64,000 nucleotides of DNA from an uncultured Candidatus Berkelbacteria bacterium (GTDB lineage: Bacteria; Patescibacteriota; UBA1384; UBA12157): assembly GCA_903877885.1 (NCBI GenBank), contig CAIRFN010000004.1, positions 19,869 through 83,868 of the forward strand, given 5' to 3'. The position numbers and the translations under genes were made by a program. Each line of letters opens with the position of its first letter. Positions within the stretch are counted from its first letter, which is position 1. Below, piece after piece: positions 13,735 to 24,321 of this stretch. The notes below the pieces were generated by a model. The model saw nothing but the letters and a program-made list of their open reading frames with translations, did not search any database and was not told where the DNA came from.

Positions 13735-14007
13735 ATGGCTCATACAAAAGCAAAAGGTACAAGTAGATTAGGTCGCGACAGTCGCGCCAAACGTTTAGGT
13801 GTCAAAAAATTTGGTGAACAAGTGATTGAAGCTGGCCAAATTATTATTCGCCAACGCGGTTCAAAATTTTATGCTGGTGAAGGTACTGCCATGGGCGCAG
13901 ATGATACTTTGTATGCCAAAGTTGCTGGAAAAGTACATTTCAAAAAAACCCAAATCATGAAGTTTACTGGTTCCAAAGTCAACAAAACCATCGTTTCAGT
14001 TAATTAA
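13735..14007 (+). CDS. rpmA: 50S ribosomal protein L27
   Basis: [29 protein letters not shown]...IIRQRG is nearly canonical L27. Confidence 0.95.
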
Positions 14008-14224
14008 GATCTAACTAAATCAACCAATTTTTTTGGTTAGATTTAATTAATTGTAACTTAACTTAATATTTGCCAAGGAATTTATTCTTTGGAAAATCCC
14101 CAGAAAGCCCCATCTTTTTCGAAAGGAGAATGCTTATGCATTCGCTATCTCCGTAAGAAGATTTCTCCGCGTCAATCCACAAATAGAATATGGTTTTGCA
14201 ACATTCTGACAAGGGAGTTTAACT

Positions 14225-14590
14225 ATGGCTACTCTAAGTTTTGGCGGAGTGATTCCGGCCAGTTTTCAACGAAGCACCGGCGATTTGGCAGAGCAAGGGA
14301 CAGACACCTATGACAAAACCGTTGCTCTGTCGATGAAAAAGTCGCAGCCACTGCCGGTCGATACCAATTCTTTGGCTATCGATATGGCCCAACTTGAGCT
14401 GTTGGCTTGCCATCAGACGGAATTTTCCGATCTGGATTCACTGATCGTAGCGATCGGACATGGTTCGGACTTGAGCCATGAAAACAAGCCGAAGTTGACG
14501 ACTCAGGAAAAGCGTGATCTCGCCCTTTTCCATGAGTATAAGGAAGTGTTGCCGAAATTCGGCTGGAAGCCACCGCAACTCCGTCGTTAA
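14225..14590 (+). CDS. Hypothetical protein, noticeably GC-richer than its neighbours
   Basis: 121-aa ORF followed by a clean terminator. No motifs. Confidence 0.35.
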   Translation: MATLSFGGVIPASFQRSTGDLAEQGTDTYDKTVALSMKKSQPLPVDTNSLAIDMAQLELLACHQTEFSDLDSLIVAIGHGSDLSHENKPKLTTQEKRDLALFHEYKEVLPKFGWKPPQLRR

Positions 14591-14612
14591 GGGATACCAC
14601 AAGGACAGTTTT

Positions 14613-14642
14613 GTCCGGCATTCGATTGCCGGACATTTTTTT
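14613..14642 (+). terminator. Rho-independent terminator
   Basis: gtccggca...tgccggac stem followed by TTTTTTT. Confidence 0.65.
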
Positions 14643-14715
14643 GCCTTTACAAAAAAATATTTATATGGTAAAATTAATTAGTAAAAAATAATTCTTCAAA
14701 ATACAAAAGGATAAA

Positions 14716-15228
14716 ATGGAAATTCAAGATTTAACCAAAACCTATCAAAAGAAAAATGTTCCAGAAATTCGCGTCGGTGACACCGTGCGGATTCATTTTA
14801 AGATTACTGAAGGTGCAAAAACCCGTATTCAAGCTTTTGAAGGCTTGGTTATTGCCACTAAACACGGTCAAGGTCTTGATGGTTCAATCAAAGTTCGCAA
14901 AGTTACCGACGGTGTCGGCATTGAACGAACTTTTCCAATTCACTCACCTTTGATTGTTAAATTTGAAAAAGTTAAATCCTATAATCCGGGACGGGCTAAA
15001 CTTTATTTTGTGCGCGATTTAGTCGGCAAGAAAAAGAAAAAAGTAGTGGAAACTAAATCTGGTCAAACTTGGGAAGAACCAACTGGCGAAAGCGAAATTG
15101 AAAAAATTGAAGCTGCCAAAGTTGCTGAAGCCGAAGCCAGATTAGCCGAAAAAGAAGCGAAAGAAAAAGAACTCGAAGAAAAATTTGAAGAAGCTGTGGC
15201 CAGCCATTTGGAAGCTAAAGCGGAATAA
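14716..15228 (+). CDS. rplS: 50S ribosomal protein L19 with a ~55-aa Lys/Glu/Ala-rich C-terminal extension
   Basis: RVGDTVRIHFKITEGAKTRIQAFEGLVIATKHGQG is canonical L19. The tail is a KEKE-type charged repeat. Confidence 0.9.
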   Translation: MEIQDLTKTYQKKNVPEIRVGDTVRIHFKITEGAKTRIQAFEGLVIATKHGQGLDGSIKVRKVTDGVGIERTFPIHSPLIVKFEKVKSYNPGRAKLYFVRDLVGKKKKKVVETKSGQTWEEPTGESEIEKIEAAKVAEAEARLAEKEAKEKELEEKFEEAVASHLEAKAE

Positions 15229-15301: not shown

Positions 15302-15646
15302 ATGTCATTTGCGCGTAAAAAGTTGGGAGCCGAAGGCGAAGATCTCGCTTTTGAATATCTGACAAAAAAAGGTTATGAACTCATCGGTCGCAATGTTAGG
15401 CTTTTTTGCGGTGAAATCGATTTGCTAATGCAAGACAAAAAGACTTTAGTGTTAGTGGAAGTTAAAACTAAATCTAATCGAGAATATGGTTTGGCTGAAG
15501 AAAAAGTTAATTATCAAAAACAGCGGAAATTATTGACATTAGCCCGCGCCTTGACTAGTAAATACCCGAACGACTCTGTTAGAATAGATGTAGTGGCTAT
15601 CAACGGTCAGGAAATAAACCATATTATAAATGCAGTGGAAGGATAA
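15302..15646 (+). CDS. yraN: YraN-family (UPF0102) endonuclease-fold protein
   Basis: GEDLAFEYLTKKGYELIGRNVR..GEIDLLMQDKKTLVLVEVKTKS is the YraN signature. Confidence 0.8.
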   Translation: MSFARKKLGAEGEDLAFEYLTKKGYELIGRNVRLFCGEIDLLMQDKKTLVLVEVKTKSNREYGLAEEKVNYQKQRKLLTLARALTSKYPNDSVRIDVVAINGQEINHIINAVEG

Positions 15647-15649
15647 TTG

Positions 15650-16495
15650 ATGTTGGAAAAATCAAAAAAATTAACGATTTTTGAAAAGGAAAAAATCCGT
15701 CGATTTTGGGATGAGGCTAAGGAATTATGGTATTTTTCAATAATCGATATTATCGGTGTTTTAATCGAACAACCAGACTTTAAAAAGGCCAAAAGTTACT
15801 GGTCTACTCTTAAGAATCGTCTCAAAAATGAAGGTAGTGAGCTGGTCACAAAATGTGACCAACTGAAAATGCCATCCGCAGACGGCAAATTTTACAACAC
15901 TGATGTGGCTGACGTGGAAACAATTTTGCGCTTAGTCCAATCGGTGCCCAGCCCAAAAGCCGAGCCGATTAAATTATGGTTAGCAAAAGTCGGCTATGAG
16001 AGAATGCAAGAAATAATTGATCCGGAAAAATCCATTAATCGTGGTCGGCTGAATTGGCAAAGAATGGGGCGAAGCGAGAAATGGATTCAACAGCGGATGA
16101 TGGGCCAAGAAATCAGAAATAAATTGACAGATTATTGGGCGGATCATGAAGTTAAAGAAAAAGGTGAATATGCGATTCTTACAAATATTATTCATCAAGA
16201 ATGGAGCGATTTAACAGTTAAAGAACATAAAAATCTTAAGAAACTTAAAACTGAAAATCTTCGCGATCATATGACCGATGCAGAATTGGTTTTTACGGCT
16301 CTAGCTGAGCTTTCGACGCGTCAAATTGCCGAAACTGTAGGAGCAAACGGTTTAGTGGAAAACAAAATTCCAGCTGAAAAAGGTGGTCAAATTGCAAAAA
16401 ATGCGCGTTTGGAGCTAGAACAAAAAACTGGTCAAAAAGTGGTGAGCGGGAGTAATTTTAAAGCTTTATCGGGACAAAAAAGTAAAATAAAATAA
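15650..16495 (+). CDS. Bro-N/KilA-N domain protein (phage antirepressor-like). ATG at 15650 is preferred.
   Basis: FSIIDIIGVL...AEPIKLWLAKVGYERMQEI resembles the Bro-N fold. Paralogous in architecture to the dinD-like gene at 8445. Confidence 0.5.
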   Translation: MLEKSKKLTIFEKEKIRRFWDEAKELWYFSIIDIIGVLIEQPDFKKAKSYWSTLKNRLKNEGSELVTKCDQLKMPSADGKFYNTDVADVETILRLVQSVPSPKAEPIKLWLAKVGYERMQEIIDPEKSINRGRLNWQRMGRSEKWIQQRMMGQEIRNKLTDYWADHEVKEKGEYAILTNIIHQEWSDLTVKEHKNLKKLKTENLRDHMTDAELVFTALAELSTRQIAETVGANGLVENKIPAEKGGQIAKNARLELEQKTGQKVVSGSNFKALSGQKSKIK

Positions 16496-16503
16496 AGGAC
16501 CAA

Positions 16504-18261
16504 ATGAAAAAAGAAATTTTTTCTCAAGACTTAAATTCACTTCTGAAAAACATTTGTGTTAATGAAAATGATTTTTATGAAACCGCTAACTCTAACACTA
16601 AGTTTTTAAAAAATATTTTTAGTAGTTTGGATAAGGATTACATTTTTCTATTAGTCGATTATCAAAAAGATGAAAAGTTAGTTGATAAAGGTTTGGTTAT
16701 TGGCGATTTAGTCAAAAATCCAGATTATAATTATTCTTTTGTGCCACTTGGTATTATTATTGAAGGTGAAGTGATTGTAAATAAAGGCGGGAAAGCCACC
16801 AAACGCTTAACAGAAGGTGATTTTATTGGTTTGTTTGAGACAAGTGATTGGTTAGAAACTGGAAAAAGAAGAGAAATTGGCGACTGGACTCTTATCGCTG
16901 GTCAAAATACTCAAATTGTTTTTTTCCCTTCTAAATTTTTTACAACTGATAATAAGATTAGCCAAACCTTTAATAACTATTTGACTGAATTAGCGCGAAA
17001 TGATCGGGTGCCGCAACCAATCACCGATTTGCCTCTTCTAGATTGGGCCGCAAGTCATACAACTAAATCAAGACTTTCCGACTATGTGATTGTGGTACAT
17101 ACTCATTTATTGCCAAATTCTTTTCCGTTTTTTCGCCAATTAGCTCATTTGGGAAATTTTGGCAAAATATTTATTATGGAAAAGCCATATTCAACAGTTC
17201 GCCAAACTTTTAACAATCTAATTCAAGCTGGTTGCGAGGTCGTCCAGGTCCAAATGGAACCAGGCCTCCCTTATGAATTTTCGGTTAAAAAGAGTCTCGA
17301 TCTTTTGTGGGCAAAAGTTATTGACGAGCAAAAGAAAACTTCTTTTAAAAAATTGTTGATAGTAGATGATGGGGCCGAACTTTGGCTTTCAATTCCATGG
17401 AATGATTTAAAAGATGTTTTAATCGCTGGCGTTGAACAAACTCAAAGAGGGATTACTCGAATCAAAAATAGCAATCATCATATTCCTCCGATTGTTAGTG
17501 TTGCTTCTAGTGGTGTCAAAAAGATTGTTGAATCGATTTTTATCGGACAGTCAGTGGTTAATAAATTTAATGAGCTAGGTATTTTTTCACAAAACAAGAA
17601 AATCGGCATTATCGGTATGGGCAGTATCGGGTCAGCTGTGGCTGATTATTTAAGCGAAAATAATCAGGAATCTTATTTTTACGACCCGCTTGGTCGCGAA
17701 AAAGTAGACACAAAAGCAATTAGTTATCCTTCACTTGATTCATTACTTAATAATTGCGATATAATTATTGGTACGACTGGTACAGACGCACTTAAAGGTA
17801 TCGCATTCGATAGAGTCCATGGGCAAAAAATTCTAGCAAGCGCGTCTTCGACTGATGTAGAATTTGCGACACTTTTAAAACTTGCAGAACCAACTACCGA
17901 GCCATTTGGTGTTCGTAAAGTAAAAGTAAATGAAAATTTAGAATTTGATATTTTGAATGGCGGTTATCCACTTAATTTTGATAGAGAAAAAAACGCAACA
18001 CCTGATGAAGACATTGTTTTAACCTGGTGTTTAATGTATATAGGCGCAATGCAGGCAGTGCGGTTGATTGATAAAAAAATTCGAGATGGTAAAATTTACG
18101 ATTTAGATATAATTTCTCAAGAAAAAATTCTAAAAAAGTGGATTGAAGAAAAAATAAAATTAGGGCAAAATCCAAACATTCTAGATGACGAGATTAAACG
18201 AATAATAAATTCCACACATCTTGATGGCGCTGGAACTATACCGAGTGTTTGGGAAGATTAA
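16504..18261 (+). CDS. Fusion of an N-terminal cNMP-binding-like domain with an adenosylhomocysteinase (AHCY)-like two-domain enzyme
   Basis: The N-terminal region has a cyclic-nucleotide-binding-like beta-roll (GDFIGLFE). The C-terminal ~430 aa track AHCY block by block: GVEQTQRGITR~EETTTGV, IGIIGMGSIGSAV~GYGDVGKG Rossmann fold, IIIGTTGT~VTTTG, LIVDDGAEL~ILDDGGD. Confidence 0.55.
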   Translation: MKKEIFSQDLNSLLKNICVNENDFYETANSNTKFLKNIFSSLDKDYIFLLVDYQKDEKLVDKGLVIGDLVKNPDYNYSFVPLGIIIEGEVIVNKGGKATKRLTEGDFIGLFETSDWLETGKRREIGDWTLIAGQNTQIVFFPSKFFTTDNKISQTFNNYLTELARNDRVPQPITDLPLLDWAASHTTKSRLSDYVIVVHTHLLPNSFPFFRQLAHLGNFGKIFIMEKPYSTVRQTFNNLIQAGCEVVQVQMEPGLPYEFSVKKSLDLLWAKVIDEQKKTSFKKLLIVDDGAELWLSIPWNDLKDVLIAGVEQTQRGITRIKNSNHHIPPIVSVASSGVKKIVESIFIGQSVVNKFNELGIFSQNKKIGIIGMGSIGSAVADYLSENNQESYFYDPLGREKVDTKAISYPSLDSLLNNCDIIIGTTGTDALKGIAFDRVHGQKILASASSTDVEFATLLKLAEPTTEPFGVRKVKVNENLEFDILNGGYPLNFDREKNATPDEDIVLTWCLMYIGAMQAVRLIDKKIRDGKIYDLDIISQEKILKKWIEEKIKLGQNPNILDDEIKRIINSTHLDGAGTIPSVWED

Positions 18262-18280: not shown

Positions 18281-19741
18281 ATGTCAGAAGAAGAAATTAG
18301 AACCCGAATTGCGCCGAGTCCAACCGGATATTTTCATATCGGCACGGCTCGCGCCGCTTTATTTAACTGGCTTTACGCCAAACGTTTTGGCGGAAAATTT
18401 ATTTTGCGAATGGAAGATACGGATAAAGCTCGTTCAACCGAGGAATATGCCATTGATATTATGGAATGTATGAGCTGGTTAGGTTTGGATTGGGATGAGG
18501 GTCCGGAAAATCCGGATTTATATGGTCCATATCGCCAATCAGAACGGGCGGAAATTTATCAAAAATATGCCAAACAACTTCTCGATGAGAGGTTGGCTTA
18601 CAAATGTTATTGCACGCCAGATGAATTGGAAGCCGAGAAAAAATTGCAGATGGAACGGCACGAACCACCAAAATATTCTGGTCGTTGCCGCAATTTGTCG
18701 CCCGAACAAATTTTGGCTTTTGAAAATGAAGGTCGCAAACCGGCTCTGCGCTTTAAAATCGACGAAAGTAGTCCAATCAAATTCAAAGATTTAATTAAAG
18801 GCGAAATGGAATTTGACCCAAAGCTTTTCGGTGATTTTATTGTGATGAAATCTGATAATTTACCGGCTTTTATGTTTGCCGGCATTATTGATGATTCGGA
18901 AATGAAAATTTCTTTAGTTATGCGCGGCGAAGATCATCTATCAAATACGCCACGACAAATTTTGTTAGCCAAAGCTTTGGATTTACCGATTCCTGATTAC
19001 GCTCATCTGTCGATGATTTTAAATTCTGACAAAACCAAAATGAGTAAACGCAAAAATCCAGTGTCGGTCTCTAAAGATTTTCGCGATAAAGGCTATTTGC
19101 CGGAAGCAATGATTAACTTTTTGGTACTACTTGGTTGGTCACCGAAAGAGGGGAAATCCGACGAAATTTATAGTTTAGATGATTTAACTAAAGAATTTGA
19201 TTTGTCGGAGGTGGGTAAATCTCCAGCGATTTTTGATACGACTAAACTCGATTTTTTCAATGGATATTATATCCGTCAAATGGAACTGGGCGAGTTAGCC
19301 AAGCGCTGTCTGCCATATTTGTTGGCTGCCGATTTAATTAAAAAAGAAGATGAAAAAATTTTGAAAGTCGTCGCTTTGGTCCAAGAAAGAATGAAAAAAT
19401 TGTCCGAAGTCGTCGAATTAACTGATTTTATGTTTAAAGAAATTGACTATCCAGCCGAACTTTTAATTACCAAAGGCACAACTAAAGAAATTACTTTGAA
19501 GGCTTTAGAAGAATCGGCCAAAGTTTTGACTGACGAAACCGATTATAGTCGCGATTCTTTGGACGGATTACTTCGAGCTTTGGCTACCAAACTTGGGTTT
19601 ACAGCCGGTCAAATTTTATGGCCAATTCGGGTAGCTTTATCTGGAAAACCGGCGTCGCCTGGTACATTCGAACTCTTAGATTTCTTTGGCAAAGATGAAA
19701 GTCTATCGCGTATTAAAAAAGCGATTGATATGCTAAAATAA
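18281..19741 (+). CDS. gltX: Glutamyl-tRNA synthetase. ATG at 18281; the ORF track starts earlier at 18221.
   Basis: HIGH region APSPTGYFHIGTAR and KMSKS motif KMSKR. Confidence 0.95.
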   Translation: MSEEEIRTRIAPSPTGYFHIGTARAALFNWLYAKRFGGKFILRMEDTDKARSTEEYAIDIMECMSWLGLDWDEGPENPDLYGPYRQSERAEIYQKYAKQLLDERLAYKCYCTPDELEAEKKLQMERHEPPKYSGRCRNLSPEQILAFENEGRKPALRFKIDESSPIKFKDLIKGEMEFDPKLFGDFIVMKSDNLPAFMFAGIIDDSEMKISLVMRGEDHLSNTPRQILLAKALDLPIPDYAHLSMILNSDKTKMSKRKNPVSVSKDFRDKGYLPEAMINFLVLLGWSPKEGKSDEIYSLDDLTKEFDLSEVGKSPAIFDTTKLDFFNGYYIRQMELGELAKRCLPYLLAADLIKKEDEKILKVVALVQERMKKLSEVVELTDFMFKEIDYPAELLITKGTTKEITLKALEESAKVLTDETDYSRDSLDGLLRALATKLGFTAGQILWPIRVALSGKPASPGTFELLDFFGKDESLSRIKKAIDMLK

Positions 19742-19849: not shown

Positions 19850-20965
19850 ATGAAACTACATGTTTTAGAAATAATTGGCGATAGTTCTTTGGCGGGGGCG
19901 CCTCGTCATCTTTTGTCGATTTTGGAAAACTTAGATACCGACAAATTCCAAACCAGTTGCATTTGTCCGCCCGGCGAGTTGGCCAATGAAATCCGACATA
20001 TTCATCGTCACATTAGCCTGGAAACGATCCGGATGAACTCGCGATTCGATTTGAAAGCGATTGGCAAAATCCGTCATTTTGTTAAACTTCATCAACCGGA
20101 TTTGATTCATGTTCATGGCACTCGCGCCGGCGCTTTGGGCCGGCTGGCCTCGATTGGTCTGGGAAAGCCAGTTATTTACACTGAACATTTGTGGACGAAA
20201 AATTTCCAACTAAATAACCGACTTTTGAATTATCTTCACCATATTGGCGGTTGGTTTTTGGATTTATTTACGACTCAAAATATTGCTGTTAGTCAAGCAG
20301 TCAAAGATTTTATGATCGAGGCTAATATTAGCTACGCTGATAAAATCAAAGTGATTTATAATGGCATTGAGCCAACCAAAACTCGGGCCGATATTTTTCA
20401 AAATGGTCAGGAAATTTGGCTAGGCACAGTCGGTACTTTAATTCCTTTGAAAGGTATTCAATATTTGTTGAAAGCCATGCCGATTATTCGTCAGCAATTT
20501 CCAGAAGTTCATTTGGAAATCATTGGCGAAGGTCCGTATCGAAAAAAGCTGGAAAAACAAACCAAAAAATTAAAATTAACCAAATTTGTTAAATTTGCCG
20601 GTTTTCAAGCTGATGTAGAAAAAAGTTTAGCTAAATTGGATTTATATGTTCAGCCGTCGGTTTCGGAAAGTTTTGGTTTGGCCATTGTCCAAGCCATGTC
20701 GGTGGGCTTGCCGGTTGTGGCGACGCGTACCGGCGGCATTCCGGAATTAGTAACCGAAGGAAAATCCGGCATTCTGATTGAAGCTGGCAATTCCAAAGCG
20801 ATTGCCGAAGCAGTTTTAAAATTGCTTTTCGACCACTCTCTGGCTCGCAAAATGGGCGAAATGGCCCGCCGCGAATCAACTGTTAGATTTAACCTTAAAG
20901 ATATGATCCTGGATGTGGAGAACTTGTATGAAGAAGTGGTTAAAAACCCTACTTTCCCTCAATAG
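19850..20965 (+). CDS. GT4-family glycosyltransferase (BshA/MshA-like retaining GT-B)
   Basis: ESFGLAIVQAMSVGLPVVATRTGGIPELV is the GT4 EX7E-region signature. Confidence 0.85.
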   Translation: MKLHVLEIIGDSSLAGAPRHLLSILENLDTDKFQTSCICPPGELANEIRHIHRHISLETIRMNSRFDLKAIGKIRHFVKLHQPDLIHVHGTRAGALGRLASIGLGKPVIYTEHLWTKNFQLNNRLLNYLHHIGGWFLDLFTTQNIAVSQAVKDFMIEANISYADKIKVIYNGIEPTKTRADIFQNGQEIWLGTVGTLIPLKGIQYLLKAMPIIRQQFPEVHLEIIGEGPYRKKLEKQTKKLKLTKFVKFAGFQADVEKSLAKLDLYVQPSVSESFGLAIVQAMSVGLPVVATRTGGIPELVTEGKSGILIEAGNSKAIAEAVLKLLFDHSLARKMGEMARRESTVRFNLKDMILDVENLYEEVVKNPTFPQ

Positions 20966-21731
20966 TTTAAGAAAAAAACTCGATAATGATCTTTTTTTCC
21001 GCGCCGCGGAATTTAACTATCATATTGAAATTTTGCCAGAATTAGAAGCGACCAGCCAGAAAATTTTGGTTTTAGCACCGCATCCGGATGACGATTGTTT
21101 TGGTTTAGGCGGAACAATTAAAAAAATTACTCAAGCTGGCGGTCAAGTGACGGTGGCTTATTTTTGCGATGGTAGCGGCGGGACCGAAGAAATAAGAAAT
21201 AAGAAAAAAGAAATCAGTTCTAAAGATTTAATTTCGATTCGCAAAGAAGAAGCGAAAAAAACCAAGGAAATTTTGGGAATTTTTGAACAGATTTTTTACG
21301 CCTATCCTGACGGCAAACTAAGCAATTCTGTCACCGCCCAAAAAGCCTTGATTAGTTTGATAAATAAGACCAGACCAGATATAATTTTCTTGCCGTCGAT
21401 GATTGATAATCACCCGGATCATCGGGCGGTCAACGACATTTTGGCCTCGGTAATAAAAACCGTAAACCTAACTTTTCAGGTTTGGCAATACGAGGTTTGG
21501 ACGCCGCTTTCTCCTAATCGAATTGTCTTAATCAATCACGAGCTGAAAGATAAGGAAGAAGCGATGGTGGCACATCAATCGCAACTGGCTACTCGCGGTT
21601 ATGCCCAAGCAATTTTTGGCTTGAACCAATATCGAGCGGAAATGAATAATCAGGCCGGTTTTGCCGAAGCCTTTTTTTCCGCCACACCAGAAATTTATTT
21701 GAAAATGTATCAGATTGTAAATAATAAATAA
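20928..21731 (+). CDS. LmbE/PIG-L family N-acetylglucosaminyl deacetylase. Start is ambiguous (20913 or 20928) and overlaps the end of the GT4 gene.
   Basis: ILVLAPHPDDDCFGLGGTI and a downstream HPDH motif. Confidence 0.8.
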   Translation: MKKWLKTLLSLNSLRKKLDNDLFFRAAEFNYHIEILPELEATSQKILVLAPHPDDDCFGLGGTIKKITQAGGQVTVAYFCDGSGGTEEIRNKKKEISSKDLISIRKEEAKKTKEILGIFEQIFYAYPDGKLSNSVTAQKALISLINKTRPDIIFLPSMIDNHPDHRAVNDILASVIKTVNLTFQVWQYEVWTPLSPNRIVLINHELKDKEEAMVAHQSQLATRGYAQAIFGLNQYRAEMNNQAGFAEAFFSATPEIYLKMYQIVNNK

Positions 21732-21794
21732 TTTTTTAAGTATTTGACAAGGGGTTGATTTGTAAATAGAATTAATTCTATGAAGGAATAAGAA

Positions 21795-23174
21795 ATGGAA
21801 GAGCAAAAAATCGTAGAAAAATATAATTTGATGTGGAATAGGCTTTTCTTTGAAGAATTTTTTAGTAATCCTGAATTTATGGATTTTGCTAGAAATTTTT
21901 CCGCCGAACGAAGCGATTATACTAAGGGTGCGAATTTTTTGCCAACAACATTGAAACCTAGATTTAATACGCTCAAGCAAGAGGAATTAATTAGAGAATC
22001 AACAGAAAATATAATATCTGCTCTCAAAAAAATAGAACAAGAATTGGTTAAGGGAAATAAAGAATTACAAGATTTTATGGGGCTAAATGAAAATCAAATG
22101 GAAGTCTTGAAGTTTCCATGTCGCTACAAAAATAGCTATTTTTGGGTAAGGTTTGATTGTGCTTTAGAAGATTTGTCACTAAAAGTTCTCGAAATTAATC
22201 TCAATTTTCCGGGTGGTCCAGGATTTTTAGATGAGATTTATGAAAATTTTGCTAAATTAAGCATCATCGATAAGTTTTCAAAGTTCACAGAAATAAAACC
22301 AAACTATGGCCTAAACGAGATATTTTATCAGACCGCATTAAAAAACTATAAAGAAGCGGGATTTGAGGAAAACAAACCAAATATAATCATATTAAAAATG
22401 GATGAACTTGGTTATGCGATGGACTCGGAAAGTGTAAAAAAATATTTTGAAAAAAACGGACACAAAGTTGTAATCGTTGATCCAAGCCGAGTTAAATACG
22501 ATGGTAAATATTTGATTTATGGCGATCACAAAGCCAATTTGATTTTAAAATGGTTTGATATAGATGATTTATTTAAGAAAAAGGGTAAATGTAAAGATTT
22601 TTATAAGGCTCTTAAAGATAATAGTTTAGCCTTAATGAACCCTTTGAGTATTGGAGTTGTAGCCGCTAAAAGCACTTTTGCCGTGATGACTAGCGAAAAA
22701 TATGCTTATCTTTTTTCCGATCAAGAAAAATCATCAATTAATAAATGTATTTTATGGACAAGGATTTTTGGAAATTACGATTCTGAAGATAAGTTGGGTA
22801 AGAAAATAAATTTACTAAAATATGCGAAAGAAAATAAAGACGAGATAGTTTTGAAACCTTCGGTTGGAACTGGCGGTGAAAAAGTCTTCGTAGGTGTTTC
22901 TTATACTGAAAAAGAATGGAACAAGATTATTAATGATATTATTAAAGAGAAAAGGAATTATATAATTCAGGACCGAGTCGAAATAATATCAGAATATTTT
23001 CCAAACATTCATAATGATAGTTTGATATTTGAAAAACGCAGAATAGATTTATTACCATATATCATGGACGAAAAATATTTTTGTTCTGGTTCAAGATGTG
23101 CTAGCGGTTACATTTTAAATGTCAAAGACGGCGCTATCGGCGGAATAAATTACACAATTTTAAATAATCAATAA
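21795..23174 (+). CDS. Glutathionylspermidine-synthase-like (GSP_synth / pre-ATP-grasp) amide ligase
   Basis: FWVRFDCALEDLSLKVLEINLNFPGGPGFLDE matches the GspS-family R-x-D...E-x-N core. IVLKPSVGTGGEKVFVG is ATP-grasp-like. Confidence 0.55.
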   Translation: MEEQKIVEKYNLMWNRLFFEEFFSNPEFMDFARNFSAERSDYTKGANFLPTTLKPRFNTLKQEELIRESTENIISALKKIEQELVKGNKELQDFMGLNENQMEVLKFPCRYKNSYFWVRFDCALEDLSLKVLEINLNFPGGPGFLDEIYENFAKLSIIDKFSKFTEIKPNYGLNEIFYQTALKNYKEAGFEENKPNIIILKMDELGYAMDSESVKKYFEKNGHKVVIVDPSRVKYDGKYLIYGDHKANLILKWFDIDDLFKKKGKCKDFYKALKDNSLALMNPLSIGVVAAKSTFAVMTSEKYAYLFSDQEKSSINKCILWTRIFGNYDSEDKLGKKINLLKYAKENKDEIVLKPSVGTGGEKVFVGVSYTEKEWNKIINDIIKEKRNYIIQDRVEIISEYFPNIHNDSLIFEKRRIDLLPYIMDEKYFCSGSRCASGYILNVKDGAIGGINYTILNNQ

Positions 23175-23175
23175 T

Positions 23176-24321
23176 ATGAATAATATTGAAAGAATAAACG
23201 TTTTATATCCAGAGCAAACCGGAGATTCGGAATCAGAGAAAATTTGGCTTAAAGCGGAAAACTTTATTCAAAATAATCCAGTTGAATTCTCTGAGGATGA
23301 AGAAAGCCAGTTAATGGATAGTTATAGCCAACTCGAATCTCAAGGACTAAACGGTGTTGTCCATATTATTCATCAAGGCTCCGCGACTGGCGAGATGGTC
23401 GCAAGGGAATTACCATCGAGTTTCAAAGAAAAATATTATCATCGCCTTCATATTATAAAAGCCGAAAACAGAGAAAGTCAGTCTGGTTTTGTCAGAGAAG
23501 GTGATACCGTAGTTTATATCTCCCAAGATGGATCGATAGACAAAGAAAATAAGGAAATGCTAGAAGACACTCTTAAAGATAGAGTGGGAATAATTTCCGG
23601 TGGTGGTGATGGCAGCCCAAAAGATAGAATTTATATTCCTCTGCTTAATGCTTTGGAAAGAGAAATAGAGAGTAATACTCCTAGTGCTGGTATTTGTTTG
23701 GGTCATCAGCTTTATGGAGAGCTAATTTTAAGCATGAGAAACAAAGCTACGGAAGGGACGATGCCAGGATATCTTGAAGGCGTTACGTCGATGGAACGAA
23801 TAACTAATAATGGCAAAGAAAATCCGATTTTTTCAAGACTTGGGGAAAGAGTGAATATTGTTTCTTTGAATATGTTTCACCTCGTCATGCCGAAAGGAAC
23901 TGAATCTGGCCAAGATGTTTTTCCACATGGTAAGGTTTTAACGAGAAGTGAGGCCACTGAATATCCAACATCATTGGAATTAAGAGGTGTAGAAGAAGGT
24001 CAGATTATTACGACACAAAGACATCCTGAAGTGGGAATGTGGGGATTTGGCGAAGATGTTATTTTTAAAGATGAAATTATCAATCTTCCGAGCGGTTCGA
24101 AATTAGTTGTACCCGCGGGGAGTCATCCGGATATGATAAAATTCGCAAAATATTTTACTCCTAAACCAATACTTGAGTTTCTGGGGCAGAAATATGGAAT
24201 TACCGAAGAGGATATTCAAAATATGTTTGTAAAAGAAAGAATGACTAAACATTTAGGTAAAGATTTTTATGGTCCAATGCTTAATTACCTAGCTGATTAT
24301 AGATTTAAATTTAATAAATAA
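23176..24321 (+). CDS. Class-I glutamine amidotransferase-like / peptidase C26-type (gamma-glutamyl) hydrolase
   Basis: Nucleophile elbow AGICLGHQL and a QRHPE motif (GATase1 Cys-His-Glu triad). The start overlaps the upstream stop. Confidence 0.55.
   Translation: MNNIERINVLYPEQTGDSESEKIWLKAENFIQNNPVEFSEDEESQLMDSYSQLESQGLNGVVHIIHQGSATGEMVARELPSSFKEKYYHRLHIIKAENRESQSGFVREGDTVVYISQDGSIDKENKEMLEDTLKDRVGIISGGGDGSPKDRIYIPLLNALEREIESNTPSAGICLGHQLYGELILSMRNKATEGTMPGYLEGVTSMERITNNGKENPIFSRLGERVNIVSLNMFHLVMPKGTESGQDVFPHGKVLTRSEATEYPTSLELRGVEEGQIITTQRHPEVGMWGFGEDVIFKDEIINLPSGSKLVVPAGSHPDMIKFAKYFTPKPILEFLGQKYGITEEDIQNMFVKERMTKHLGKDFYGPMLNYLADYRFKFNK

Follow-up and report, generated by a model that had tools for sequence, protein, structure and literature searches.

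A CNB-like domain fused to an AHCY-like enzyme half that belongs to a large separate family

How is one to read a protein that joins a domain resembling cyclic-nucleotide-binding (CNB) modules to a partner resembling adenosylhomocysteinase (AHCY)? The question is raised by a 585-residue open reading frame in the window (the whole 64-kb stretch of DNA analysed here), which comes from a bacterium of the Patescibacteria type with a small genome. Sequence models (Pfam, NCBIfam, PADLOC, and PHROGs) return a generic NAD-binding match and weak AHCY similarity for this target, and nothing more. The protein is confirmed here as a genuine fusion of a CNB-like and an AHCY-like part.

The gene and its CNB-like module

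The frame and its upstream surroundings are as follows:

15302-15646: YraN/UPF0102 gene (E 2.8e-24)
15647-16495: Bro-N-like gene (Pfam E 2.4e-5; 25.3 bits, just below the cut-off of 25.6)
16495-16499, + strand: AAGGA, a Shine-Dalgarno-like box 4 nt 5' of the ATG, read from the sequence
16504-18261, + strand: open reading frame, ATG start, 585 aa plus TAA stop, read from the sequence

The frame starts 8 nt past the end of the Bro-N-like gene, and the gltX ATG (18281) follows 19 nt further on, all on the same strand. A homologue search with the 585-aa protein returned more than 150 full-length relatives at 40-62% identity, and 68 columns are invariant across 45 aligned members; both findings mark 16504-18261 as a real, constrained gene. 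Both neighbours named in the initial annotation, Bro-N and YraN, are present beside it, and the Bro-N-like protein is a full-length match to the PADLOC candidate PDC-S13 (E 1.8e-119). An Rfam scan of the whole window found five tRNAs only, none of them close to the gene.

Three features define the amino-terminal part:

16504-17001, + strand: N-terminal module, residues 1-166 (AF2, Foldseek, hhalign)
16816-16899, + strand: most conserved N-terminal stretch, residues 105-132 (GDFIGLFETSDWL...R.IGDWTLIA), at the position of the CNB phosphate-binding cassette
16996-17064, + strand: conserved linker, residues 165-187 (R.D.VP.P.t.LPLLDW.A.HTT; alignment, AF2 secondary structure)

The module consists of a short helical lead-in, an eight-stranded CNB-type β-barrel (strands between residues 47 and 140), and two helices (143-147 and 151-166). 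Modelled separately, residues 1-176 reach an AF2 pLDDT of 92.4, and a Foldseek search of the PDB with this model returned CNB domains throughout its top 50: PKA-R, PKG, HCN, SLC9C1, and Bd1971 (E 3e-6 to 7e-5; TM 0.5-0.6 on the target). The domain also aligns with E. coli CRP (hhalign E 1.4e-5). The initial annotation had described the first ~140 residues as cNMP-binding or cupin-like; the predicted structure confirms a CNB domain at the level of fold. Support at the level of sequence is weak: Pfam cNMP_binding (PF00027) has no match on the 585-aa protein and is matched by 2 of 45 relatives at about E 2e-3 (1.9e-3), and the sub-threshold PDB sequence matches of the N-terminus are to CNB domains only, at E 0.09. 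The annotation had allowed that a missing cNMP-binding hit would undo its reading; the hit is indeed missing for the Pfam HMM on the 585-aa sequence, but the fold search overrides that result.

Within residues 105-132, six positions are invariant: G109, F111, E112, R123, G126, and W128. The 'GDFIG' of the module is identical in E. coli CRP. At the cassette, GDFIG-LFE...R123 carries the invariant E112 and R123, but the spacing of Glu and Arg is unlike the canonical FGE...R[ST]A, and alignments conflict on the register. Since the spacing differs, ligand binding by the CNB-like domain is at most putative, and the domain may serve in docking or have a structural role instead of acting as a sensor.

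The linker connects the last CNB helix with the first helix of the AHCY-like part, and much of it is invariant or nearly so (R165, D167, V169, P170, P172, P177, L178, L179, D180, W181, A183, and H185-T187). The full-length AF2 model has a pLDDT of 91.7 and a pTM of 0.91, the latter of which suggests a fixed arrangement of CNB-like domain and enzyme.

The AHCY-like half and family X

Residues ~176-585 are predicted to form a complete AHCY fold. The 50 best Foldseek matches in the PDB are SAH hydrolases without exception (E as low as 5e-17; TM 0.70-0.75 across entire AHCY chains; identity 14-20%); AHCY-like 2/3 and AHCY lead the PDB sequence matches of the family profile (E 3e-10); and hhalign of the 585-aa protein with human AHCY gives a probability of 93.7%. 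Fold, profile, and hhalign thus bear out, for ~410 residues, the block-by-block AHCY likeness first described for the C-terminal ~430, and the motifs quoted for it are present. The parts are these:

17029-17550, + strand: AHCY-like substrate-binding domain, first part, residues ~176-349 (profile and hhalign mapping; limits approximate, transferred from human AHCY)
17551-17964, + strand: predicted NAD-binding Rossmann domain, residues ~350-487 (Pfam 2-Hacid_dh_C, mapping, conservation)
17605-17631, + strand: GxGxxG loop, G368-G376
17683-17685, + strand: acidic D394, at the end of beta-2
17839-17865, + strand: S446-x-S448-S449-x-D451-x-E453-F454, in place of AHCY N-I-G-H301-F-D-V-E
17965-18258, + strand: C-terminal part, residues 488-585 (alignment, AF2)

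Landmarks of the substrate domain can be followed along the chain: H201 (His55 of human AHCY); K227-x-Y229-S230; D288-D289 (Asp130/131); E311-Q312-T313-x-x-G316 (Glu155/Glu156/Thr157...Gly160); and K339...E343-S344 (Lys186...Asp190-Asn191). The Rossmann domain adds a GTTG motif (residues 423-426) to its GxGxxG loop and conserved D394, so that the two-domain AHCY fold comes with the signature of a predicted NAD site. Its Pfam match, 2-Hacid_dh_C on residues 362-423 (E 3.3e-10, 40 bits), is the sole domain above threshold in the protein. The C-terminal part holds a G487-Y-P489-x-N491-F492 loop, shorter than the GCAMGHP loop of AHCY; the substrate domain's return helices come next, and then a conserved tail with PSVW.D at its end. 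In AHCY this tail (Lys426/Tyr430) extends to the cofactor site of the neighbouring subunit; by analogy, the conserved tail may reach the adjacent site here as well.

Catalytic residues were mapped by alignment (human AHCY numbering), and the substitutions suspected earlier are real. His55 (H201), Asp131 (D289), and Lys186 (K339) are kept and invariant. Near-invariant changes affect Glu156 (Q312), Asp190 (E343), Asn191 (S344), and His301 (S449); Thr158/159 become Q314/R315, and Asn181 becomes A334. The canonical set of His55, Asp131, Glu156, Lys186, Asp190, Asn191, and His301 is thus incomplete. In site-directed mutagenesis of AHCY, changes at Glu156, Asn191, or His301 strongly impair hydrolysis; as all three are replaced, plain SAH hydrolysis by this pocket is doubtful. 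The adenine-contacting Thr57 and Glu59 give way to L203 and N205, so the bound base may be other than adenine. In AHCY, His301-Phe302 lies beside the homocysteine channel; in the window protein Ser-x stands in its place.

Family models agree. Neither Pfam AdoHcyase nor AdoHcyase_NAD matches the 585-aa protein even at E<=10, and the ahcY equivalog PRK05476 (NCBIfam) scores 30.2 bits against a cut-off of 275. With these models failing and at least four catalytic or cofactor-contact positions held by other conserved residues, the protein, judged by its sequence, is not a canonical metabolic AHCY; the simpler possibility of a long-form AHCY with intact residues, raised at the outset, falls with the AdoHcyase and AdoHcyase_NAD searches and the replaced residues. 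No canonical ahcY was found among ten window ORFs scanned, including all seven of ~400-440 aa; 64 kb says little about the whole genome.

The enzyme half belongs instead to a large, separate paralogous group, termed here family X. This set of uncharacterised paralogues of AHCY, delimited here by profile and signature motifs, has 859 representatives at E<=1e-30. Most are stand-alone proteins of ~420 aa, present in many phyla and on conjugative plasmids of Legionella and Simkania. Matched to positions ~180-565 of the family profile, stand-alone members reach 215-290 bits (E ~1e-60), whereas solved AHCYs score 24-42 bits. The signature comprises (Q/T)-H-L-L, K-x-Y-S, DDGG, E-Q-T-x-x-G, V-A-x-S-x-x-K-x-x-x-E, S-x-S-S-x-D-x-E-F, and G-G-[FY]-P-x-N-F; the window protein has every one of these motifs and is a member.

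Conservation among 106 stand-alone members is strict. It is complete at H201, K227, Y229, S230, G290, T313, G316, K339, E343, and G371/G373/G376 of the dinucleotide-binding glycine motif; 99% at D288, S446, S449, E453, and T507; 98% at D394 and N491; 91% at Q312; and 88% at G368 of the same motif. This pattern of residues fits a working pocket, not a decayed one. In L. pneumophila, family X is an extra plasmid gene beside the organism's own canonical SAHH (Lpg2021, PDB 8wwg). By profile and motif, family X is a sister family distinct from the canonical SAH hydrolases.

The fusion had at first seemed unusual. It is common in Patescibacteria, and its enzyme half belongs to a family with hundreds of representatives, so that remark needs qualifying. 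Several database records call relatives 'adenosylhomocysteinase', and many others NAD(P)-dependent oxidoreductase or D-2-hydroxyacid-type dehydrogenase. Full-text searches of the literature found no work on a bacterial family of this kind (the matches concerned animal IRBIT only) and no combination of CNB and AHCY-like domains, and 50,697 phage records gave no match.

Recurrent partners and neighbourhoods

Family X recurs with two partners: the CNB-like domain, and one subfamily of HemK2/MTQ2-like methyltransferases. In nine loci a gene, here called Y, lies directly upstream of X, and the Y protein shares homology at its N-terminus with the N-terminal domain of the window protein (hhalign probability 96.9%, E 1.6e-10). 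Run on all ORFs of ~60 loci, an HMM of the Y N-terminus matched its own source Y proteins and the CNB-X proteins, and nothing else. The link was obtained by hhalign, or by starting from Y; at E 1e-4, an HMM iteration seeded with nothing but the Patescibacteria N-terminal domain fell short of Y. For the C-terminal ~300 residues of Y, neither Pfam and NCBIfam nor the PDB sequences gave a match, and neither the window nor the Patescibacteria loci contain a homologue.

Proteins of ~850 aa carry the CNB-like domain, a middle region, and X in one chain. In other phyla, then, the CNB-like domain either sits on a separate gene just upstream of a stand-alone X or is fused to it, which makes the two a split/fused gene pair. 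This pairing lends independent support to the initial proposal of a regulated, ligand-gated AHCY-like protein.

The partner methyltransferases share motif IV FNLPYH and a mutual identity of 35-77%. They adjoin X upstream in four Parcubacteria loci, are fused N-terminally in L005, L022, and L023, and are fused C-terminally in L024, L027, L030, L033, L059, and P0127; none was found anywhere in the window. At least six loci have a conserved operon in which an ECF S-component (CD3073 family, E 1.2e-30) is followed by a ~230-aa protein, an ABC ATPase, Y, and X-MTase. A minority of loci have the ECF-type transporter, which is missing from both the window and the Patescibacteria loci, and most stand-alone family-X genes have neither a methyltransferase nor a CNB-like neighbour.

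Patescibacteria relatives lie in varied settings: between map and adk in a ribosomal-protein cluster; next to LigT; and others. Recurring neighbours there are the methyltransferase (four closely related loci) and a loose linkage to gltX (three to four loci), with no others. The initial annotation had argued from the Bro-N and YraN genes for a sensor or effector instead of a metabolic AHCY. Neither gene recurs in 20 related Patescibacteria loci, so they carry no functional weight; nor does a nucleotide cyclase lie beside the gene in any of ~60 loci examined or in its neighbourhood in the window. Among 123 neighbours of distant relatives, ABC_tran alone recurs as a Pfam family, with no other enrichment. 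Close to some of the distant relatives are integrases, type IV secretion genes, or plasmid regions rich in toxin-antitoxin genes. Three 612-aa relatives (P0092, P0097, and P0104) have an N-terminal extension that looks ribbon-helix-helix-like by eye, without Pfam support in P0092 and P0104, the two scanned.

Possible function and comparison with known systems

Because the CNB-like domain, X, and the methyltransferase occur together repeatedly, fused or adjacent, we propose a ligand-regulated, redox-neutral, NAD-dependent enzyme acting on SAH or a related 5'-substituted nucleoside and tied to SAM-dependent methylation, a proposal in which our confidence falls somewhat short of even. From folds, homology, residue pattern, and gene associations we infer three things: NAD-dependent 3'-oxidation; a link to SAH and SAM; and allosteric control. 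The C-terminal ~410 residues would form a complete two-domain, AHCY-fold, NAD-binding enzyme of family X, in which the equivalents of His55, Asp131, Lys186, and the acidic position 190 would support transient oxidation at the ribose 3'-OH by NAD and abstraction of the C4' proton, as in AHCY. The pocket is the family's own, with Gln in place of Glu156, Ser in place of both His301 and Asn191, an invariant Lys-x-Tyr-Ser, changed adenine contacts, and a shortened His353 loop. Its substrate, SAH or a related 5'-substituted nucleoside, would arise in connection with the HemK2/MTQ2-like methyltransferase. CNB domains usually signal ligand binding to an effector through a helix-linker; here the conserved helix-linker would couple the CNB-fold domain to the enzyme, and the domain could govern the open/closed motion that AHCY-type catalysis needs.

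A bolder version, which we regard as possible but doubtful, takes the methyltransferase, the CNB-like domain (with or without the ~300-residue Y body), and family X as an enzymatic module, not recognised before, that would have a nucleoside or SAM-derived chemistry of its own. Its AHCY-fold enzyme, gated by ligand, would use transient NAD oxidation on a new substrate to form or break down a modified nucleoside or an adenosyl thioether other than SAH; the window protein would represent the smallest fused version. The set sometimes has a dedicated ECF importer, is spread by conjugative elements, and is kept by host-dependent bacteria (Patescibacteria, Legionella, and Simkania).

Other explanations stay closer to annotated families. 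A housekeeping SAH hydrolase, in which a divergent AHCY of long form carries an extra regulatory domain and recycles the SAH left by every methyltransferase, would account for the AHCY fold, the 'adenosylhomocysteinase' records of relatives, contexts that look housekeeping (such as that between map and adk), the lack of a canonical ahcY among the ~400-440-aa window ORFs, and an association with methyltransferases that fits SAH removal. We think it quite unlikely, however, given 30 bits against an equivalog cut-off of 275 and no AdoHcyase Pfam match; the replacement of Glu156, Asn181, Asn191, His301, Thr158/159, and the adenine-binding Thr57 and Glu59; the presence of family X as an extra plasmid gene in L. 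pneumophila with a canonical SAHH; and the small bearing of a 64-kb absence on the genome. The same degree of doubt applies to a non-catalytic pseudoenzyme like animal AHCYL1/2 (IRBIT), which would bind NAD and a nucleoside and act as a sensor or regulator, for example of the partner methyltransferase. The best PDB sequence-profile matches are the AHCY-like 3gvp and 3mtg (E 3e-10 and 1e-9), several catalytic positions are substituted, and the fusion is to a sensor-type domain; yet the His/Asp/Lys/acid core and further polar pocket residues are invariant over hundreds of very distant members, which is more than binding usually demands. The reading that many records give, an NAD(P)-dependent dehydrogenase of the usual D-2-hydroxyacid type, is scarcely credible. 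2-Hacid_dh_C is its only domain above threshold, but that match covers profile positions 34-97 of 178, the dinucleotide-binding beta-alpha-beta unit; the catalytic half has no match, the 50 top structural matches are all AHCY, and the AHCY substrate-domain motifs (the His55 motif, DDGG, and E-x-T..G) are present.

Two further accounts draw on context. Family X might act on some other small molecule (a nucleoside, cofactor, or sugar derivative) that some bacteria would import through the ECF-type transporter and N-methylate with the partner methyltransferase, in a pathway of salvage or modification and not of SAH handling. The operon of S-component, ABC ATPase, Y, and X-MTase in at least six loci speaks for this, as does the altered pocket, with its invariant Lys227 and Tyr229 and the exchange of His301-Phe302 for Ser-x at the homocysteine channel; we nonetheless hold it unlikely, with the transporter confined to a minority of loci outside the window and the Patescibacteria, and with no candidate substrate named by the data. 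Very unlikely is an anti-phage effector of Pycsar or CBASS type, in which a CNB sensor would trigger an NAD-binding effector on cyclic nucleotide. A CNB domain joined to an effector is indeed the layout of Pycsar effectors, the Bro-N-like neighbour matches PDC-S13, and some distant relatives lie near integrases, T4SS, or TA regions. Against this, no cyclase is adjacent in ~60 loci; Bro-N and YraN are not conserved neighbours; PADLOC gives the 585-aa protein only weak Rossmann-level E1-E2 matches and no model; the 50,697 phage records are without a match; and the 123 neighbours show only ABC_tran as recurrent.

The proposed ligand-regulated, NAD-dependent enzyme would matter beyond this locus. 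The AHCY fold is generally regarded as close to a one-reaction fold: hydrolysis of SAH or S-inosylhomocysteine, plus the inactive IRBIT. A strictly conserved, different pocket in hundreds of family-X representatives, with three recurrent partners (the CNB-like domain, the methyltransferase subfamily, and the ECF-type importer), points to a new reaction or a new regulation of methylation by-products. Its carriers include ultra-small Patescibacteria as well as plasmids of intracellular pathogens. Neither 'adenosylhomocysteinase' nor 'NAD(P)-dependent oxidoreductase' is likely to be the right annotation for family X, and metabolic reconstructions of Patescibacteria that count it as ahcY would be misled. 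The description of family X as a large separate family with CNB-like and methyltransferase partners is new here. Its fused 585-aa form, small, probably soluble, and predicted with high confidence, is a convenient entry point for biochemistry.

CNB-regulated proteins (CRP/FNR, PKA-R, PKG, HCN channels, the CNB-EAL protein Bd1971, and Pycsar effectors) have a β-barrel and helical hinge in common with the N-terminal module, a 'GDFIG' strand leading into a short helix-loop with conserved Glu and Arg at the cassette position, and a C-terminal helix that continues straight into the effector. They differ in the cassette itself, FGE[LI]AL...R[ST]A against GLFETSDWL...R.IGDW, and in their significant matches to Pfam cNMP_binding; the window protein also has a conserved 14-residue insertion (Y77, V80-P81-L82-G83).

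SAHH (EC 3.13.2.1; human 1li4, T. maritima 3x2f, and L. pneumophila Lpg2021 8wwg) shares the whole two-domain fold at TM 0.70-0.75: a Rossmann domain whose NAD site has GxGxxG, an acidic position following beta-2, and a TTG motif; the conserved C-terminal tail; and equivalents of His55, Asp130/131, Glu155, Thr157, Gly160, Lys186, and the acidic 190. At 14-20% identity, far under thresholds, the window protein departs from it in several exchanges (Glu156 to Gln, Asn181 to Ala, Asn191 to Ser, His301 to Ser, Thr158/159 to Gln/Arg, Thr57 to Leu, and Glu59 to Asn), a shorter His353 loop, the new invariant Lys227 and Tyr229, and an added N-terminal CNB-like domain of ~170 residues. AHCYL1 and AHCYL2 (IRBIT; 3mtg and 3gvp) likewise are AHCY-fold proteins that carry a regulatory region at the N-terminus and whose function as hydrolases is doubtful or absent. 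Their extension, however, is disordered, phosphorylated, and of PEST type instead of a folded CNB domain, and this animal family keeps most AHCY catalytic residues; the relation runs only through the shared superfamily. The archaeal S-inosyl-L-homocysteine hydrolase (7r37-7r3a) still scores as AHCY, lacks an extra domain, and keeps the catalytic set, differing mainly in its base-recognition residues; it offers a precedent for an AHCY-fold enzyme with changed nucleoside specificity.

Folds of the two halves

The target ORF (16504-18261, forward strand) was initially annotated as a cyclic-nucleotide-binding-like (CNB-like) domain fused to a non-canonical adenosylhomocysteinase (AHCY)-like enzyme. 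Sequence models say little about it. Pfam matches residues 362-423 alone, to the dinucleotide-binding portion of 2-Hacid_dh_C, and found neither an AdoHcyase nor a cNMP_binding domain; on the NCBIfam AHCY model, whose cut-off is 275 bits, the protein scores 30. These results agree that the protein is no standard AHCY.

Structure prediction settles both folds. For the full-length model (pLDDT 91.7, pTM 0.91), the top 50 PDB structural matches are all SAH hydrolases, aligned along their entire chains (best E 5e-17; TM 0.70-0.75; identity 14-20%), which bears out the AHCY-like carboxyl-terminal part. For residues 1-176 modelled separately (pLDDT 92.4), the top 50 are all CNB domains: PKA-R, PKG, HCN, SLC9C1, and the CNB-EAL protein Bd1971. 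Weaker evidence from sequence agrees: the amino-terminal profile has only sub-threshold matches among PDB sequences, all to CNB domains; hhalign to E. coli CRP gives E 1.4e-5 with 'GDFIG' identical; and two of 45 relatives reach Pfam cNMP_binding. The proposed amino-terminal domain thus holds as a fold, although not as a Pfam match.

Gene setting

An AAGGA box lies 4 nt 5' of the target ATG, within a tight string of co-directional genes.

Genes of the string and of the cluster downstream of gltX
13735-14007, co-directional with target: rpmA
14716-15228, co-directional: rplS
15302-15646, co-directional: yraN/UPF0102
15647-16495, +: Bro-N-like gene, directly upstream of target
16504-18261, +: target, 585 aa, ATG start
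ATG at 18281, co-directional: gltX
19850-20965, +: GT4 glycosyltransferase
20913-21731, +: PIG-L deacetylase
21795-23174, +: circularly permuted ATP-grasp domain, weak sub-threshold match (E 3.1e-7; 30.1 bits, cut-off 32)
23176-24321, +: class-I glutamine amidotransferase

From end to end the Bro-N-like product matches PDC-S13, a defense candidate in PADLOC (E 1.8e-119); it also matches PHROG 15286 (E 2.6e-92), and its Pfam Bro-N score is borderline (25.3 versus 25.6 bits). The gene looks like a mobile or phage-derived insertion that came between yraN and the target in a run of housekeeping genes. The rpmA-rplS gap (14008-14715, about 700 bp) holds no convincing gene: a 121-aa ORF (14225-14590) lacks a Pfam match, and Rfam at gathering thresholds found nothing. 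Downstream of gltX, the co-directional cluster (19850-24321, forward strand) includes a GT4 and PIG-L pair reminiscent of the two steps that open bacillithiol or mycothiol synthesis.

The Bro-N and YraN genes adjoin the target as annotated, but neither recurs beside the gene in 20 Patescibacteria loci, so the sensor or effector role argued from these neighbors loses its footing. Only gltX is loosely linked (three to four loci). Other settings are between map and adk in a ribosomal cluster, beside a caspase-like peptidase, and beside LigT. Among 123 neighbors of distant relatives, ABC_tran is the only recurrent Pfam family.

A family and its partners

A search of 5.8 billion proteins found 156 relatives of the target, nearly all full length (560-612 aa; identity 40-62%), from Patescibacteria/Parcubacteria metagenome genomes and named 'hypothetical', 'NAD(P)-dependent oxidoreductase' or 'adenosylhomocysteinase'. 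These relatives, and 68 invariant columns across both halves in an alignment of 45 members, establish a real gene under constraint. Two full-length relatives (L017, L018; 52-54% identity) on contigs of about 5 kb carry Gammaproteobacteria or Methylococcaceae labels; these are probably mis-binned Patescibacteria, not true proteobacterial occurrences. Three 612-aa relatives (P0092, P0097, P0104) bear an amino-terminal extension of about 45 residues, ITINDKLADIVSSVQQKYPIYDVNDAIEYLIARG, which by eye looks like a ribbon-helix-helix DNA-binding motif; Pfam scans of P0092 and P0104 gave no support for it.

The target sits inside a sizeable uncharacterized family, here termed X. Searched exhaustively with the profile, 1.84 billion representatives yielded 859 proteins at E<=1e-30, most of them stand-alone (400-450 aa). 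The stand-alone proteins align only to profile positions ~180-565, at ~215-290 bits, versus 24-42 bits for solved AHCYs. Hosts include Bradyrhizobium, Solirubrobacter, Nitrospirota, Acidobacteriota, Verrucomicrobiota, Gammaproteobacteria, Woesearchaeota and others, and stand-alone X genes are also carried by conjugative plasmids of two intracellular bacteria, Legionella pneumophila (L060: NZ_CP015948.1, 58056-59420) and Simkania negevensis (L061: pSn, 124156-125382). Toxin-antitoxin pairs surround the former gene, as do a recombinase and a gene with a WGR domain; the latter precedes an SDR oxidoreductase and an EamA transporter. Because L. pneumophila has a canonical SAHH (Lpg2021, among the PDB matches), its X is an additional paralogue. 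No member was found in phage genomes, no X-specific model in NCBIfam or Pfam, and nothing on the family in a literature search.

In nine loci from other phyla, stand-alone X directly follows a gene for a ~400-500-aa protein, Y (L058 5607-6998; L059 5579-6910; L030 8476-9999; also L031, L032, L033, L034, L042 and L027). The first ~140 residues of Y are homologous to the target's amino-terminal domain (hhalign probability 96.9%, E 1.6e-10), and an HMM of this region, run against all ORFs of ~60 loci and the window, matches only Y and CNB-X fusions. The remaining ~300 residues, an uncharacterized domain, match nothing in Pfam, NCBIfam or the sequences of the PDB. In proteins of ~850 aa, one chain carries a CNB-like domain and X with ~290 aa between them. 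The window protein is thus the compact fused version of a split pair, a classical sign that its two parts function jointly.

A second partner is one methyltransferase subfamily with motif I VLE[IL]G.G and motif IV FNLPYH, closest to NCBIfam models PRK14968 and HemK2/MTQ2. It is absent from the 64-kb window, but four Parcubacteria loci have its gene immediately 5' of CNB-X; the enzyme is also fused amino-terminally (L005/P0119, L022, L023) or carboxyl-terminally (L024, L027, L030, L033, L059, P0127). The most complete fusion observed, from a Pacebacteria MAG (L023, 114-2624, 836 aa), comprises a winged helix (FeoC/HTH_24-like), methyltransferase, CNB-like domain and X. A third recurrent partner is an ECF-type transporter. 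In at least six loci its S component (CD3073 family) is followed by a ~230-aa protein and then by an ABC ATPase whose amino terminus is extended by ~190 aa, all ahead of Y and X in a conserved operon that ends in X-methyltransferase (L059 3199-8683; L030 6061-11746; also L024, L027, L033, L034, L039). The L059 operon adjoins type IV secretion genes (VirB8, CagX, TrbI).

Active site and candidate function

Residues were mapped through profile-to-PDB alignments and hhalign to human AHCY, with numbering that matches the published catalytic positions. The substitutions suspected initially are present.

Human AHCY residues and window-protein counterparts
His55: H201, kept
Thr57/Glu59 (adenine contacts): L203/N205, replaced
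Asp130/131: D288/D289, kept
Glu155: E311, kept
Glu156: Q312, replaced
Thr157: T313, kept
Thr158/159: Q314/R315, replaced
Asn181: A334, replaced
Lys186: K339, kept
Asp190: E343, conservative change
Asn191: S344, replaced
His301: S449, replaced

This non-AHCY pocket is almost invariant among 106 stand-alone members: H201, K227, Y229, S230, T313, K339 and E343 at 100%, S449 at 99%, and Q312 at 91%.

The simplest model, favored tentatively, is a regulated enzyme that is NAD-dependent yet redox-neutral and whose substrate would be SAH, or else a related 5'-substituted nucleoside, linked to the partner methyltransferase; this model is suggested by the kept oxidation and proton-abstraction residues, the hinge architecture, and the repeated joining to a SAM-dependent methyltransferase. 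Bound NAD would oxidize the ribose 3'-OH, the C4' proton would then be abstracted, and the CNB-like domain may use the conserved helix-linker (residues 151-187) to control how the enzyme's domains close. The regulated, non-canonical reading of the initial annotation survives here, shorn of its argument from neighbors.

Plain SAH hydrolysis is disfavored because Glu156, Asn191, the adenine contacts and the His301-Phe302 pair (which in AHCY lies beside the homocysteine channel) are replaced. This argues against a housekeeping SAHH, an unlikely identity, and leaves room for a new substrate; a role in a different small-molecule pathway is conceivable if doubtful. That the protein is a non-catalytic sensor is likewise unlikely, and a plain dehydrogenase is scarcely credible. 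The domain layout would suit a defense effector; however, no nucleotide cyclase adjoins the gene at any of the ~60 loci examined, PADLOC does not recognize the target, and the Bro-N and YraN neighbors are not conserved. The layout is therefore all that speaks for defense, and we consider that role very improbable.

Family X retains the two-domain hinge architecture of AHCY. In the window protein a shorter GGYP takes the place of the GCAMGHP loop, and the NAD site motifs are intact (GxGxxG 368-376, D394, GTTG 423-426). Given this intact site and the pattern of kept and replaced residues, the window protein is neither a canonical nor a decayed AHCY.
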